DNA of 11,575 bases from a virus (Duplodnaviria; Heunggongvirae; Uroviricota; Caudoviricetes): IMG/VR virus record IMGVR_UViG_2718217885_000003, positions 1 through 11,575 of that record. One strand, written 5' to 3'. The notes beneath the pieces were generated by a model that was not told where the DNA came from, made no database searches, and saw only the letters and a list, made by a program, of their open reading frames with translations. Position numbers and translations under genes: made by a program. Shown piece by piece: positions 1,120 to 9,601 of the stretch (the first letter of the stretch is position 1; the number at the start of each line of letters is the position of its first letter).

Positions 1120-1154
1120 TGTGCCCCCCATCGTTCTGGCTGTCTGGTGTCGTC

Positions 1155-1228
1155 GGGTCCTTCCTGGAATTATGGCCCGTTACGGGGCGGCGACCTCGCG
1201 GTTTTTCACTATTTATGAGATTTTTTAG
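1155..1228 (+). other. lambda-type cos site, copy A: cosQ-like GGGTCCTTCCTGG, then cosN with the 12-nt cohesive-end sequence GGGCGGCGACCT at 1185-1196
   Basis: 1179-1206 GTTACGGGGCGGCGACCTCGCGGTTTTT matches the phage lambda cos junction from memory and continues with CACTATTTATGAGATTTT (lambda: CGCTATTTATGAAAATTTT). It is a perfect inverted copy of 1799-1826. Confidence 0.7.
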
Positions 1229-1385
1229 GGGGTGGTTGTTGTTTAATTGTTTGTCATATCTATTTGATAACTAAGTAAAAATAGAGAGCAATACAACAAC
1301 CTGATAGTGTTTTTTGATGCTACAAATAAAAAAAATGCTAATTGAATCAAATAGTTTTACAAAAATACGTGGTTGTTGTATTGCG
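1229..1385 (+). repeat. cosB-like region of cos copy A: three GGTTGTTGT repeats (direct, inverted, direct) with an AT-rich spacer
   Basis: GGTTGTTGT at 1234-1242, ACAACAACC at 1293-1301 and GGTTGTTGT at 1371-1379; 1288-1301 and 1371-1384 form a perfect 14-bp inverted repeat. The layout parallels lambda R3-I1-R2-R1 at similar distances from cosN. Confidence 0.5.
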
Positions 1386-1433: not shown

Positions 1434-1643
1434 CTACTGATTGTTCCATGCTGGCGCGGCGAACGCTTCGGCATGACGCCACCCAGCCAGAAAACCAGCC
1501 ATTTTATTTCGTGCTTTGCTCACATCTTCCGGTGAGTAGCCGTAAATCTGTAAACCTTCATTGAATCGATGTTCTGTTTCTTCACTTGAGTACTCGTCGC
1601 TCTCCGATGAAATCAGCCTGGCAACTTCAGTCTGCGTAGCCAC
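1434..1643 (-). CDS. hypothetical small protein, 69 aa, in the position lambda Nu1 occupies relative to cos copy B; candidate packaging-redirection (Rpp-like) factor
   Basis: GTG start at 1643-1641 with GAGGTGAGGA immediately upstream; stop TAG at 1434-1436 on the complement. It begins about 180 nt after the cosN of copy B. No HTH or other recognisable motif; acidic stretch SSESDEYSSEETEH. Confidence 0.4.
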   Translation of the reverse strand: MATQTEVARLISSESDEYSSEETEHRFNEGLQIYGYSPEDVSKARNKMAGFLAGWRHAEAFAAPAWNNQ

Positions 1644-1666
1644 TCCTCACCTCACAATCACGACAA

Positions 1667-1772
1667 AACCGGTCATGTCCGGTTTACATGTCTATTTTTT
1701 GCGCATGTCCGGTTCATGGAAAGCCTATTTTTATATTTTTCATATAGTTAACTTGCAGAGAAACCGGACATG
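1667..1772 (-). repeat. cosB-like region of cos copy B: three CATGTCCGGTT repeats with an AT-rich spacer
   Basis: CATGTCCGGTT at 1674-1684 (inside the inverted repeat AACCGGTCATGTCCGGTT, 1667-1684) and at 1704-1714; inverted copy AACCGGACATG at 1762-1772. AT-rich block 1717-1760. Distances from cosN (about 49, 107 and 140 nt) resemble lambda R3/R2/R1. Confidence 0.5.
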
Positions 1773-1782
1773 GATCCCGGAA

Positions 1783-1852
1783 AATTTTCATAAATAGCGA
1801 AAAACCGCGAGGTCGCCGCCCCGTAACAGGTCCATATGCCGGAAAGGACCCG
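1783..1852 (-). other. lambda-type cos site, copy B (minus orientation): cosQ-like GGGTCCTTTCCGG, cosN cohesive-end sequence at 1810-1821
   Basis: The reverse complement of 1781-1852 reads GGGTCCTTTCCGGCATATGGACCTGTTACGGGGCGGCGACCTCGCGGTTTTTCGCTATTTATGAAAATTTTCCGG, near-identical to the lambda cos junction as recalled. It lies directly downstream of the capsid-operon terminator. Confidence 0.75.
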
Positions 1853-1853
1853 C

Positions 1854-1875
1854 AAAAAAGCCGGATTTCTCCGGC
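1854..1875 (-). terminator. rho-independent terminator of the capsid operon
   Basis: On the minus strand, GCCGGAGAAATCCGGC stem-loop followed by TTTTTT, immediately 3' of the CDS ending at 1882. Confidence 0.8.
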
Positions 1876-1881
1876 CTTGTC

Positions 1882-2308: not shown

Positions 2309-2644
2309 TTATCGCGCCAGCGGCTGAACAGATACACCAGAACCCGCAAAGGCGGCACATTTTTTCGCGTCGGTGTCGACGCTCTCAGGCCAGTTAACGG
2401 CGGCAATATTGAATATCCCCGTCTTGTAACACTGTGCTGATTTCTGCGTTGACGTGTCCACGGGATACGCCGTCAGATAAACAGCCTTGCCAGATTCCTG
2501 ACCATCCCACGGCTTAAATTCGCCATTGTCCGCCAGCATCAGCGGGGTAAATTCCTGAATAACGCCAGCATCAGCGGCAAAATGTACCAGCGTCGTGGCA
2601 ACCTGCTGACTGCCTGCAAATAACTCAATGTATGGAGTGTCCAT
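2309..2644 (-). CDS. head decoration protein, lambda gpD-like, 111 aa
   Basis: Segment TPLMLADNGEFKPWDG...CYKTGIFNIAAVNWPE...KKCAAFAGSGVSVQ parallels lambda gpD (TPLMLDTSSRKLVAWDG...FYKSGTFRYEDVLWPE...KKRTAFAGTAISIV, from memory). SD GGGGGA 5 nt upstream of ATG 2644. Confidence 0.8.
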   Translation of the reverse strand: MDTPYIELFAGSQQVATTLVHFAADAGVIQEFTPLMLADNGEFKPWDGQESGKAVYLTAYPVDTSTQKSAQCYKTGIFNIAAVNWPESVDTDAKKCAAFAGSGVSVQPLAR

Positions 2645-2655
2645 AGAATCCCCCG

Positions 2656-3711
2656 TTAACCAATTTTGACGGTAACAAATTTGCGAATATCTGCCGGAAC
2701 CGGCTGCGGTGCGCTGTGCGTCTGCACGTACTCAATCGCCGGATCGCCGTCCTCAATCCAGTTTTTCGGGTAAAACATGTTTTGCGTTGCGCCCGTTCTG
2801 ACCGCTTCCTGATCCATAATCGCACCATAGGCCACCAGCCCTTTATTGTTGGTGTTGCCCAGGACCAGCAAATCAGGCTCAAGGAAATATTTTTCGGTGC
2901 CGTCGCTGTCAGTGTATTTGCCGGAATAGACGATAAGGGCAATATCGCCCAGATATCCTTTAAAGCTCACCACTTCGCCCAGGTTTTTACAGGCCAGCTC
3001 TGCGGAGGACTCTGAACCACGGGAAAGATCGTACAGTTCGCGGAATTTTTTAAAGCTGCGTAACGTTCGCCATACCTCAGCGCCCATGATCATGACGTTG
3101 GCGGGGCAACCTGCTTGATCCGCATAAAGCTCGATATCATAGATTGGATCGTGGGTTTCTTTGTCCTGCTCGGACCATTTACGGCCTTTGGCCTGCTCTA
3201 TGATGTTTTTTTCCGGTATCTTCCAGTCGATTTCATAGCGTTCTATGCCTTCGCCCTCAATGATGTTTTTTCCGGTCGTTACCGCATTCACCGCCAGCCA
3301 TTCCACGCGCGCTTTAATCGCGTTTATCTGGCGGCGCATGTTGCCAGTAATCAGGCGCATACGGCGATAGGTTGGGTCATTAAGCTGTGCCGGATCTTCT
3401 CCAGCCATACGCATGATGGTTTTCGTTGGATCGATTTCGTGCTTCGGCTTCATGTATCCAGGTTTAATCGTGCTGGTTTCGTACCCTTTATCGCGCTGGA
3501 CCTGACTACCCACCATAGGCGAACAAAACGCCGACATCGTAACCTCTTCAATGTCCAGGGTGTCCAGCATGATGCTTTGGGTGTTGAATGTCGCCACGTT
3601 CGGGAAAAACAGCGTGGTAAACAGCGGACTGAATTTAAATTCCGCAATATCCCCGCGATTCAGGTACGCGAAAAGCTGGTTAGTGTTAAGTGCCGTTGCT
3701 TTGCCTGCCAT
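2656..3711 (-). CDS. major capsid protein, lambda gpE family, 351 aa
   Basis: Multiple conserved blocks versus lambda gpE (from memory): FKFSPLF..LFF, PGYMKPKHEIDP, EDPAQLNDPTYRRMRLITGNMR, WSEQDKETHDP, LRSFK, SRGSESSAEL..LGEVVSFKGYLGDIALIVYSGKY, LVLGNTNNKGL.AYG, YPKNWIEDGDPA. Start ATG overlaps the upstream stop (TAATG). Confidence 0.9.
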   Translation of the reverse strand: MAGKATALNTNQLFAYLNRGDIAEFKFSPLFTTLFFPNVATFNTQSIMLDTLDIEEVTMSAFCSPMVGSQVQRDKGYETSTIKPGYMKPKHEIDPTKTIMRMAGEDPAQLNDPTYRRMRLITGNMRRQINAIKARVEWLAVNAVTTGKNIIEGEGIERYEIDWKIPEKNIIEQAKGRKWSEQDKETHDPIYDIELYADQAGCPANVMIMGAEVWRTLRSFKKFRELYDLSRGSESSAELACKNLGEVVSFKGYLGDIALIVYSGKYTDSDGTEKYFLEPDLLVLGNTNNKGLVAYGAIMDQEAVRTGATQNMFYPKNWIEDGDPAIEYVQTHSAPQPVPADIRKFVTVKIG

Positions 3712-7687: not shown

Positions 7688-7919
7688 AACCCCCCCCATT
7701 TTCACAATCAGCAATCAGGATGGCTTTAGCCTCATTCAGTGCCATTTCAGCGGTAAGCTGTGCGTAGGCCAGCGAATGGGGGATTATTGCCCCTGTATAT
7801 TCCGGCTCTCTGGTAATGTGTTTTTCTGCGGTTGCTGCCGTGCATGAAATATCAATCAGCGCATCCATCAGCGTTTTGATGGCTTCGGCGGCTGCGTCCG
7901 GACGGGGGTTATTGCACAT
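7680..7919 (-). CDS. hypothetical protein, 79 aa
   Basis: ATG at 7919 with AGGAGG 7 nt upstream; overlaps the 3' end of the upstream gene by 11 nt. Confidence 0.55.
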   Translation of the reverse strand: MCNNPRPDAAAEAIKTLMDALIDISCTAATAEKHITREPEYTGAIIPHSLAYAQLTAEMALNEAKAILIADCENGGGYA

Positions 7920-8277
7920 GGCGCACCTCCTGACGAATACGGGCGGCGAATACCATCACGCAGCCAGCCGGGGATTGCTGGCGGGCTTCCTGTTCGCTGG
8001 TGGCCTCAATGGTAATCACGCGCGGTTGTGCCGTGCTCAGGGCGATAAAACGCCAGATAAAATTGTTTTCGCATTTCTGAATAAACAACGTGTTTTCTTC
8101 GCGCCCTTTCCATGTTGCCGAGATATAGCCCATGTCATTGAGCATCTCGCAGGCATCAACCAGCGTATCGGCGGCTACATGTACAGTGTTTTTACCGTCA
8201 GCTATGCAATCACGGTGCACCGCCAGGAAGGTGTATATAAATTTAGGGTGAGTTTGGGTATGCTGTGTTCCAGCCAT
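7909..8277 (-). CDS. hypothetical protein, 122 aa, first gene of the replication operon
   Basis: ATG at 8277 with AGGAG 8 nt upstream. It is the 3' part of a spurious 562-aa track ORF (7909-9597) whose upstream portion is antisense to the plus-strand cassette. Confidence 0.6.
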   Translation of the reverse strand: MAGTQHTQTHPKFIYTFLAVHRDCIADGKNTVHVAADTLVDACEMLNDMGYISATWKGREENTLFIQKCENNFIWRFIALSTAQPRVITIEATSEQEARQQSPAGCVMVFAARIRQEVRHVQ

Positions 8278-8306
8278 AATCGTTACTCCTATTAACGGTT
8301 TGGTTA

Positions 8307-8448
8307 GAAGCCCCGTTACTGCTCCAACAGTGCGGGGCTTCGTCGTTTCAATTGCTGAATTGCATGTATCAGCCCTTGTGGTATTCAGATTACATTTTGG
8401 TGAATACCATTTCAAGTCTTTTTTGGTATTCACTTTTGTATTACACTG
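8307..8448. promoter_or_regulatory. divergent control region: stem-loop plus TGGTATTCA repeats
   Basis: Stem-loop GAAGCCCCG...CGGGGCTTC at 8307-8341. TGGTATTCA at 8379-8387 and 8425-8433, with inverted copy TGAATACCA at 8401-8409 (9-bp inverted repeat, 13-bp spacer). Lies between divergent genes starting at 8277 (minus) and 8477 (plus). Confidence 0.4.
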
Positions 8449-8476
8449 CATCCCGTTATTAATCGGAGGTGCAAAC

Positions 8477-8782
8477 ATGTCCACGAGTTCTGTTAACAAT
8501 AAATCACAGCAACTGAATGCCAGATTTCCACATGAAGTAGTGAGTGGCATTGAGGCATCCCTACAGCCAGGGGAAACTAAAGCGAATTTTATAGTTACGG
8601 CTGTACGCGGTGAGATCGCCCGCCGCCAGGCAGAAGGAAGCGGAGAAAACCCCCTGGTTTCTTCGCTCGATGCACTGGCGCAGGTGGAAAAAATCGGAGT
8701 CAAAGCTGCCGAGGAGATCGGGCAGCTCGTCACCGTCGCACGTGAAGAACTACAGCGCCGCAAGGCCAAAGAATCAGAATAA
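8477..8782 (+). CDS. ribbon-helix-helix-like DNA-binding protein, 101 aa, first gene of the counter-oriented cassette
   Basis: ATG at 8477 with GGAGGTG 7 nt upstream; double stop TAATAA. QLNARFPHEVVSGIEASL ... TKANFIVTAVRGEIARRQ fits a strand-helix-helix pattern. The longer track ORF from 8300 has no SD. Confidence 0.55.
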   Translation: MSTSSVNNKSQQLNARFPHEVVSGIEASLQPGETKANFIVTAVRGEIARRQAEGSGENPLVSSLDALAQVEKIGVKAAEEIGQLVTVAREELQRRKAKESE

Positions 8783-8839
8783 TAACTATCATCGCCGTGG
8801 TGTGAGGAACTCCGGCGCATTGCTTTACAGGTACACAGA

Positions 8840-9022
8840 ATGACCAACAACGAATCAACCAATACACCATCACCGGCACGGAAAAGACAGCGCAGAAAGA
8901 TAGCGCATGAGCATGAGTCAGAAAGATTCGCACCATGTGCTTTTGCTCTTGAGAAATTCCTAAAAGAGTACAGGAAAACGCGCCCATTGCAGGTATGGCA
9001 ACGTAACGAACAAAAAGGTTGA
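8840..9022 (+). CDS. hypothetical small basic protein, 60 aa
   Basis: ATG at 8840 with AGGT about 7 nt upstream. Lys/Arg-rich. Same reading frame as the two following small ORFs. Confidence 0.35.
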   Translation: MTNNESTNTPSPARKRQRRKIAHEHESERFAPCAFALEKFLKEYRKTRPLQVWQRNEQKG

Positions 9023-9025
9023 TGT

Positions 9026-9157
9026 ATGACCAGGAAGCAGACAGATAACAAACCATTGCTACCAGAGAATAAATCAGCGGGATTTTTACCGGAAAAAGTG
9101 CTACATGAGCTAAAATTCCGCCAGCGTAAAAAATCCAAAGAAACAGACAAAGAATAA
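9026..9157 (+). CDS. hypothetical small basic protein, 43 aa (below the ORF-track size cutoff)
   Basis: ATG at 9026, 3 nt after the TGA of the preceding ORF (TGATGTATG), same frame; ends TAA at 9155-9157. Translation read manually: MTRKQTDNKPLLPENKSAGFLPEKVLHELKFRQRKKSKETDKE. Confidence 0.25.
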   Translation: MTRKQTDNKPLLPENKSAGFLPEKVLHELKFRQRKKSKETDKE

Positions 9158-9160
9158 CTT

Positions 9161-9325
9161 ATGCACCAAATACTATACTGGCTCGGATCTCTGTTTGTAT
9201 TTGCATTTCTCATGAAATATTGCATTAGCAATGAACCTGCCGACAATGAAAGTACATGCGGGAGTGCTGAAAAAGATATTCCACCTCTCGTATATGAAAA
9301 TGAAAGCCCTGTGCACCGCAATTGA
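9161..9325 (+). CDS. hypothetical small membrane peptide, 54 aa (single predicted transmembrane helix)
   Basis: ATG at 9161, 3 nt after the preceding TAA, same frame. Manual translation MHQILYWLGSLFVFAFLMKYCISNEPADNESTCGSAEKDIPPLVYENESPVHRN has a 19-residue hydrophobic N-terminal segment. A terminator follows at 9423-9450. Confidence 0.3.
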   Translation: MHQILYWLGSLFVFAFLMKYCISNEPADNESTCGSAEKDIPPLVYENESPVHRN

Positions 9326-9422
9326 GCGAAATTTAATGAATTCACTCTTTGCCCACCAGCCGCAAATGTGGCATTGTTGGCAATGCTCATGCGTTGGGGA
9401 TAACGTGTAGCTTGTGTCGAAT

Positions 9423-9450
9423 GGCCACCGTAGCAGGTGGCCTTTGTTTT
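9423..9450 (+). terminator. rho-independent terminator of the plus-strand cassette
   Basis: GGCCACC-GTAGCA-GGTGGCC followed by TTTGTTTT. Confidence 0.75.
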
Positions 9451-9488
9451 GCCTGTTATCCGGCAATTGTGGCGCTTCGTCACACGGT

Positions 9489-9574
9489 TGATATAATTCC
9501 CCTGCACTGATCCATTTTTTTCGCAGCAGGTTAATTGTTCACAAGGGCGCTCCGGCAACGGGGCGCTTTTTGTT
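9489..9574 (+). ncRNA. candidate small RNA (about 70 nt) between an extended -10 promoter and a second plus-strand terminator, opposite the 3' end of alpA
   Basis: TGATATAAT (9489-9497) fits the extended -10 pattern TGnTATAAT. Terminator GCGCTCCG-GCAA-CGGGGCGC plus TTTTTGTT at 9547-9574. No ORF of meaningful length between them. Confidence 0.2.
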
Positions 9575-9601
9575 ATGTTCATTGCGTTACACCTCACACC
9601 A

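Follow-up and report, generated by a model that had tools for sequence, protein, structure and literature searches.

A leftover of rppA joined to the start of a phage small-terminase gene, beside a phage-type cosB, in a cos-type island of the EcCICFT073 family

Rpp-dependent packaging and the island family of the window

The described packaging mode of Gram-negative cos-type PICIs is one in which an Rpp protein retargets the helper small terminase subunit (TerS) to an island-specific cosB. In the prototype, EcCICFT073, RppA binds the helper TerS and retargets it to the cosB of the island (PMC6739421). The double exchange R21A/T22A in RppA abolished the preferential packaging of cos1, the L51D protein showed no binding to lambda TerS, no interference and no efficient transfer, and F121R abolished dimerisation (PMC6739421). 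The gene for RppA (c1503), which was characterized along with RppB and RppC (PMC6739421; PDB 6hlk, 6hn7), is located between the two inverted cos sites of the island, at the same locus as the small reading frame considered here. Both cosB regions of EcCICFT073 have been described as unrelated to those of lambda, phi80 and the resident helper, and the role of cos2 was left open (Fillol-Salom 2018/2019). Another mode is represented by P4 with P2, and by SaPIbov5 and other cos-type SaPIs, in which the satellite carries a helper-type cos and the helper terminase recognises it without modification. We propose the same mode for the island described below, with the difference that a helper-type cosB has here replaced an Rpp-dependent one within a TerS-retargeting family, and that in our case the mode is a proposal made from sequence.

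The window, by which we mean the whole analysed stretch of 11,575 nt, is by its gene content a complete cos-type PICI of the EcCICFT073 family. It contains genes for an integrase, AlpA, a D5-type primase, an SSB, gpE-like and gpD-like capsid proteins and a PerC homologue, as well as a 137-aa gene, a 97-aa gene and two inverted cos sites. The integrase, AlpA, the primase/replication module and the gpE-/gpD-like genes, together with an rpp locus between two inverted lambda-type cos sites, characterize the EcCICFT073 type, and all were found in the window. Two islands (L011 and L013) are 100% identical to the window, and its gene order is that of the prototype in strain CFT073, in which rppA (c1503, 144 aa) is located between the cos sites. 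The first of these, cos1, lies beside the capsid-like genes and is followed by the island-specific cosB and then by rppA. Likewise, related islands and CFT073 carry full-length RppA or RppB alleles of 144–146 aa at the position of our reading frame. In the related islands, this gene of 144–146 aa gave a match to RppC along its entire length (E = 2.4e-31); the published alignment served to assign it to RppA or RppB, and the full-length alleles possess an N-terminal winged-HTH domain.

The gpE-like (351 aa) and gpD-like (111 aa) capsid proteins are encoded at 2309–3711 on the minus strand, and the 137-aa protein at 1882–2295 on the same strand; the latter has a weak PHROG match to the C-terminal portion of a head maturation protease family. 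These genes correspond to c1499/c1500 and the neighbouring gene of EcCICFT073, and deletion of c1499 or c1500 did not relieve interference with lambda (PMC6092414). The segment 8060–9343 is specific to the island type of the window, L011 and L013, with at most 26% coverage in other islands; it holds several short plus-strand ORFs, and a minus-strand GTG ORF of 562 codons (7909–9597) looks spurious. A scan of the whole window against Rfam identified no family.

The lambda cohesive-end sequence GGGCGGCGACCT has exactly two occurrences in the window, in two inverted cos copies with the following features:

1810–1821, minus strand: cosN GGGCGGCGACCT of cos copy B, with the outer flank of EcCICFT073 cos1
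1776–1852, minus strand: cosQ–cosN arm of copy B, one arm of a 77-nt inverted repeat, from repeat comparison
1154–1230, plus strand: cos copy A, the inverted partner (cosN at 1185–1196), with the outer flank of EcCICFT073 cos2
1234–1384, plus strand: island-specific region beside copy A with three GGTTGTTGT repeats, at 1234–1242 (+), 1293–1301 (−) and 1371–1379 (+)
1854–1878, minus strand: terminator-like hairpin (9-bp stem) with a subsequent T-run, directly downstream of the 137-aa gene and ahead of the cosQ of copy B

The three GGTTGTTGT repeats beside copy A compare with 0.11 expected by chance, and the first of them, at bp 50–58 from the cohesive end, coincides with the position of R3 in lambda. 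We identified this region in 40 E. coli genomes, and the matches for which the surroundings were examined were all located in islands. The possibility that it represents the cosB of another phage was rejected, as the phage collection gave no match beyond cosN. The region may be a third type of cosB with a binding protein of its own.

A reading frame composed of Nu1 and rppA pieces

The small reading frame that is the subject of this study had been singled out from the DNA letters as a 69-codon ORF with a GTG start and a Shine-Dalgarno sequence, beginning about 180 nt past the cosN of copy B, in the position of the small terminase gene Nu1 of lambda. All of this was borne out by our analysis, in which the locus was resolved into the following parts:

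1434–1643, minus strand: chimeric ORF of 69 codons with a GTG start, consisting of a Nu1 stub, rppA codons 78–128 and a frameshifted tail
1644–1653, minus strand: Shine-Dalgarno sequence GAGGTGAGGA, of phage Nu1 origin and adjoining the GTG on its upstream side
1617–1643, minus strand: ORF codons 1–9 (GTG-ATQTEVAR), by sequence identity the start of a prophage small-terminase gene (VATQTEVARHLSL...)
1616–1624, minus strand: recombination junction with 9-bp microhomology TTGCCAGGC, Nu1 codons 7–9 (V-A-R) / rppA codons 77–79 (F-A-R), in frame
1470–1622, minus strand: rppA-derived codons 8–58, corresponding to RppA residues 78–128 (alpha5 and the first part of alpha6), with F51 (= RppA F121) kept
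1434–1469, minus strand: novel tail EAFAAPAWNNQ and stop, after a 1-nt deletion between 1468 and 1469

The GAGG within GAGGTGAGGA is located about 6 nt before the GTG. Counting the cohesive end of copy B (1821) as bp 1, the ORF starts at bp 179 and lambda Nu1 at bp 191 (PMC9026076). The ORF occupies the Nu1 position because its start codon, its Shine-Dalgarno sequence and its codons 1–9 derive from a phage Nu1 gene. In RefSeq, the same ORF in a near-identical island is annotated as the hypothetical protein WP_236923120.1. Conservation in related islands had been named as a test of the original prediction, and the identical protein was found to be encoded on 24 E. coli contigs, in all of which the ORF is open and preceded by a good Shine-Dalgarno sequence and start codon. 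Since it is built of two pieces of real genes and the identical protein recurs on these contigs, the ORF is more than a chance reading frame. A large protein search identified five relatives, for one of which, a remnant of 53 aa (P0005), a look-up found no contig.

The phage-derived part is delimited by two comparisons. Alignment of the window with the related islands extends to position 1624 and resumes at about 1775, with nothing aligned in the interval, and homology to phages starts at 1616, such that the two homologies overlap in TTGCCAGGC. For the segment 1616–1857, GTG and codons 1–9 included, matches were obtained in the cos/Nu1 region of phage PhiR12_1 and in that of many E. coli prophages; the phage gene starts with GTG-ATQTEVARHLSL... 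and the ORF with GTG-ATQTEVARLISS... In a prophage without the 17-nt insert of PhiR12_1 (L005), the spacing is exactly as in the window. The Nu1/TerS proteins of the donor prophage family start with VATQTEVAR. Judging from these matches, the Shine-Dalgarno sequence, codons 1–9 and the whole 150-bp cosB upstream are from a widespread lambdoid prophage family.

The remainder of the ORF is derived from rppA. A homology search against the Rpp proteins, which had been proposed along with the original prediction, gave RppC (PDB 6hlk, residues 83–126) as the sole match in the PDB with phmmer (E = 4e-7), and at 48 of the 51 retained codons the encoded residue agrees with that of L019, the full-length RppA-type allele closest to the ORF. 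The Rpp part begins at the equivalent of RppA residue 78, and residues 1–77 are absent. Tail codons 59–69 are out-of-frame rppA: a single T that is present in five of five full-length alleles examined is missing, which turns ...WRHA-VSVRRASMEQ... into ...WRHA-EAFAAPAWNNQ* and replaces the last 18 residues of RppA. The full-length alleles all keep the V(S/A)VRR... frame in this region, and the ancestral stop codon TAA has become TCA in the window. We conclude from these alignments that the ORF is a chimera and a leftover of the known packaging-hijack gene rppA, an anatomy that we regard as essentially certain.

The sole match to Pfam was to a YutD-like family (E = 0.023; 15 bits, where the curated cutoff is 25), which was rejected as a chance hit. 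No HTH family was matched in Pfam, PHROGs or NCBIfam, and at 69 aa the product is too short for a TerS, as had been anticipated; a lambda-like TerS (Nu1) has about 170–180 aa, and the ORF has no match to Phage_Nu1. It had further been suggested that the ORF might encode a new type of factor. A TerS-binding protein unrelated to Rpp would be favored by the position of the ORF alone, and we consider it extremely improbable, as every codon could be traced to phage Nu1 (codons 1–9), to rppA (8–58) or to out-of-frame rppA (59–69).

A phage-type cosB in place of the Rpp system

The DNA upstream of the ORF is a phage-type cosB with three R-sites of the CATGTCCGG type, all of which are identical to the sites of the phage:

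1674–1684, minus strand: R1-like site AACCGGACATG, exact motif
1704–1714, minus strand: R2-like site AACCGGACATG, exact motif
1762–1772, plus strand: R3-like site, in the opposite orientation to R2 and R1, at bp 50–60 from the cohesive end

Three exact AACCGGACATG sites were observed, as compared to 0.24 expected by chance, and their layout is the R3 / R2–R1 layout of lambda, in which R3 is located at bp 50–65 (PMC9026076). The cosB of the window is 94–96% identical to the prophage cosB. Of 5,426 complete E. coli genomes, 830 have this cosB, and it adjoins the terminase small subunit gene for WP_000235436.1 in both of the prophages that were inspected (L004 and L005). The two complete genomes with the cassette that contains this cosB and the ORF have further copies of the cosB elsewhere, in four and two places, and from these match counts we infer that the cassette-carrying genomes also host a cognate helper prophage.

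The Nu1-like C-terminal part of WP_000235436.1 is the only part that matches Pfam Phage_Nu1, and the N-terminal DNA-binding region has no detectable sequence similarity to the DNA-binding domain of lambda TerS. The protein also differs from the phage-21-type TerS of the helper of CFT073. Phages and prophages with this type of TerS, such as PhiR12_1, share with the window the Shine-Dalgarno sequence, the GTG, the first 9 codons, the distance to cosN and the R3–R2–R1 cosB, whereas the ORF has retained only 9 of the 169 codons and lacks the DNA-binding, oligomerisation and TerL-binding domains.

What the island has lost is the machinery for retargeting. The winged-HTH domain (Rpp residues 1–64, with R21/T22), which is the reader of the island cosB, is absent from the ORF, and so is the TerS-mimicking heterodimerisation surface that includes L51. 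Of helix alpha6, the first 18 or so residues and F51 (= F121) are kept and the sequence is frameshifted from the equivalent of residue 129 onward, and F121 is the only one of the functionally characterized positions R21/T22, L51 and F121 that has been retained. In comparison, RppA shares with the ORF the stretch of codons 8–58 (residues 78–128) including F121, but has residues 1–77, an intact end of 18 residues and an N terminus that is not that of a phage TerS, and it follows a cosB of the island type. Furthermore, the island-specific cosB (an R3-PICI unlike that of the helper), which is seen in CFT073 and in the related island L002, is gone from the window, where the cosB upstream of the ORF is of the phage type. 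There is nothing left for an Rpp protein to redirect TerS to, because the island-specific cosB has been replaced by the phage's own.

According to our hypothesis, the starting point was an island of the L002 type, in which cos1 precedes the island cosB and rppA. It would have recombined with a lambdoid prophage of the VATQ-TerS type in such a way that everything from cosN through rppA codon 77 was replaced. One crossover would have been a homologous exchange in the common cosQ/cosN sequence, and the other would have taken place at the 9-bp microhomology inside Nu1 and rppA. The incoming segment would have brought along the prophage cosB (R3, spacer, R2 and R1), the Nu1 ribosome-binding site and Nu1 codons 1–9; the in-frame joint, whether by chance or selection, would have left the 69-codon ORF, the last residues of which would later have been scrambled by the 1-nt deletion. 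The unmodified TerS–TerL of the helper would then bind and cut the helper-type cosB of the island, with no need for Rpp. The helper terminase should cut the island cos because the recombinant presents it with its own cosB. We assign a probability of roughly 0.7 to this overall explanation, in which cosB was replaced, the island is packaged directly by an unmodified VATQ-type TerS and the ORF is a by-product. By analogy with the helper-type cos satellites, the island would be recognised and packaged directly by an unmodified TerS of the WP_000235436 type, and the ORF product is probably functionless, or at most a vestigial dimerisation helix.

The original prediction had taken the ORF for a candidate packaging-redirection factor of the Rpp type. 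The link to Rpp was confirmed by the match to RppC and by the RppA-type sequence over 51 codons, but a working redirection factor is contradicted by the missing winged-HTH domain, the frameshifted end of the dimerisation helix and the replaced island cosB. A more modest alternative is that the retained alpha5–alpha6 segment dimerises and either binds helix alpha3 of the helper TerS, which would give interference but no retargeting, or forms dead heterodimers with the full-length RppA of competing islands, as a dominant-negative weapon among satellites. The fusion is in frame and equipped with the phage's own Shine-Dalgarno sequence and start codon, it is intact on all 24 contigs, it retains the F121 that RppA requires for dimerisation, and in the RppC–TerS crystal alpha6 packs against alpha3 of TerS (PMC6739421). 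However, the L51D point mutation in the missing domain is by itself sufficient to abolish TerS binding and interference (PMC6739421), and the distal third of alpha6 is frameshifted. An AF2 model of the ORF, in which residues 38–62 form the alpha6-equivalent helix, has low confidence (pLDDT 65.7), and the fold searches with this model, a structure-based comparison that had also been proposed at the outset, gave nothing specific.

Expression of the ORF also bears on this alternative. The hairpin at 1854–1878 is conserved in CFT073 and L002, and would be expected to stop transcription of the capsid-like operon before it reaches rppA or the ORF unless antiterminated. A scan of positions 1100–2000 identified no promoter, and thus no sigma-70-like one between the hairpin and the ORF, which argues against a working short Rpp. 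A sister arrangement, described below, in which 16 rpp codons remain and the ORF is absent, also argues against it.

The pattern of substitutions points in a similar direction. The dN/dS values of the 51 retained codons are 0.11–0.24 relative to the full-length alleles, as compared to 0.05–0.54 among the full-length alleles, and such values mostly reflect the past of these codons inside an intact gene. The truncated lineage has, as changes of its own, a frameshift, the loss of the stop codon, R15S, D28N and W55G, all of which alter the protein and none of which is synonymous; one variant still has D at position 28, and W55G is present in one genome, where it affects an invariant Trp and thus also speaks against a functional short Rpp. 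Although these numbers are small, we lean toward relaxed constraint. As the cassette is so young (0–1 substitutions), its persistence gives little information for or against selection on the ORF. In sum, we consider a working short form of Rpp unlikely. Its most elaborate version, which we consider about as unlikely, is that the fusion has been selected as an Rpp without DNA-binding domain that poisons the dimers of rival Rpp proteins or weakly sequesters the helper TerS. If this were true, the product would be expressed from the translation signals of the helper, and an island packaged directly through its cosB would in addition harm those competitors in its cell that depend on Rpp.

Spread of the cassette and parallel arrangements

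The recombinant segment is not confined to a single island, and comparison of loci defined the following unit:

1142–1827, no strand assigned: cassette of 100% identity among 12 loci, with the single change W55G in one of them

These loci represent at least four chromosomal sites (yejM/tRNA-Pro, a site in the ykg region, roxA–phoQ and next to clpA), and the islands that carry the cassette have three integrase types. In the roxA–phoQ islands, the genes that flank the cassette are 89–94% identical to those in the window, representing two backbones that are 6–11% divergent. Moreover, strain MFDS1022581 (CP169399.1) contains two islands (L012 and L013) with the identical cassette at different sites. 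The presence of an identical cassette on divergent backbones therefore indicates a very recent lateral spread between island lineages, which is hard to explain if the islands were no longer able to move, and which we take to mean that the cassette still supports transfer. The islands of MFDS1022581 have further peculiarities: one of them has a frameshifted capsid-like gene, and the other has a split primase gene and a fusion of the gpD-like gene with the gene beside it.

These findings should be weighed against the idea that the whole cassette is debris, in which case the recombination would have destroyed the packaging system of the island and left an element that no longer moves and is decaying. 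It is consistent with this idea that rpp is disrupted and frameshifted, that a capsid-like gene is frameshifted in one host genome and that the primase is split in a second island copy (L013). On the other hand, the identical cassette resides at four or more attachment sites in association with three integrase types and two backbones, two copies are present in one genome, and cosN and all three R-sites are intact and match the phage consensus. A distribution of this kind requires recent mobility and fits poorly with a dead element, and we therefore regard the debris hypothesis as rather improbable and maintain the hypothesis of direct packaging through the captured cosB.

An independent sister arrangement (L022; NZ_CP075697.1, 2250–2900) was identified in 11 complete genomes. 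It has the same phage cosB as the window, here 97.5% identical to that of PhiR12_1, a different junction, about 16 rpp codons and no ORF, and its segment between the cos sites has the opposite orientation with respect to the genes on either side. This layout suggests an inversion or rearrangement between the inverted cos repeats; the inverted fragment of 16 rpp codons abuts the last four codons of rpp. Because only about 16 rpp codons have been kept in this variant, Rpp sequence is evidently dispensable beside this cosB.

Another parallel comes from 11capE, a helper-embedded PICI (PMC10111431). In this element (L021; NC_017634.1, 28059–28473), 258 bp are 90% identical to the lambda-type cosQ–cosN–cosB of the helper, and are followed by a 64-aa ORF starting with MEVNKDQLADILG, of which the first 13 or so codons are those of lambda Nu1, fused to unrelated sequence. 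The core of its cosN has diverged (GGGGCGTCAGGCGCGCAG). Taken together with the stub in the window, the 11capE stub therefore identifies ORFs of this kind as recurrent scars of cosB capture, and small ORFs at the Nu1 position of satellites should be annotated with the caution that they can be such recombination scars.

The prototype itself provides a third example. The cos2 site of EcCICFT073 (L023; NC_004431.1, 3097–3345, compare window 1660–1830) has a cosB of the CATGTCCGG type with R3, R2 and R1, and its homology to the phage stops right after R1, abutting the rppA stop codon. It differs from the window in that the phage cosB ends at this point and coexists with an intact cos1–rppA, whereas in the window it is located on the cos1 side, reaches into Nu1 and has destroyed rppA. 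We considered the possibility that the phage cosB of the window was merely copied from a cos2 of the EcCICFT073 type, which was rejected as the sole source because cos2 leaves the phage sequence after R1 and the window continues for about 60 nt, through the Shine-Dalgarno sequence and Nu1 codons 1–9. The resemblance suggests that the prototype is also packageable directly by the VATQ-type prophage family, without Rpp.

The Rpp proteins, the paired cos sites and the island family have all been described before, and the ORF itself is ordinary. New, as far as the searched literature shows, are a natural Rpp-less derivative that has arisen by replacement of cosB, and the presence of the same prophage cosB at cos2 of the prototype. 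The cassette represents a family member that dropped both halves of the Rpp system in favor of the helper's cosB, and that is apparently still spreading. Other islands have different cosB segments at their two cos sites, and taken together these arrangements suggest that exchange of cosB segments at the two inverted cos sites is a way in which the family alters or widens its range of helpers. Such swapping, if true, would explain why two cos sites have been retained in these islands.
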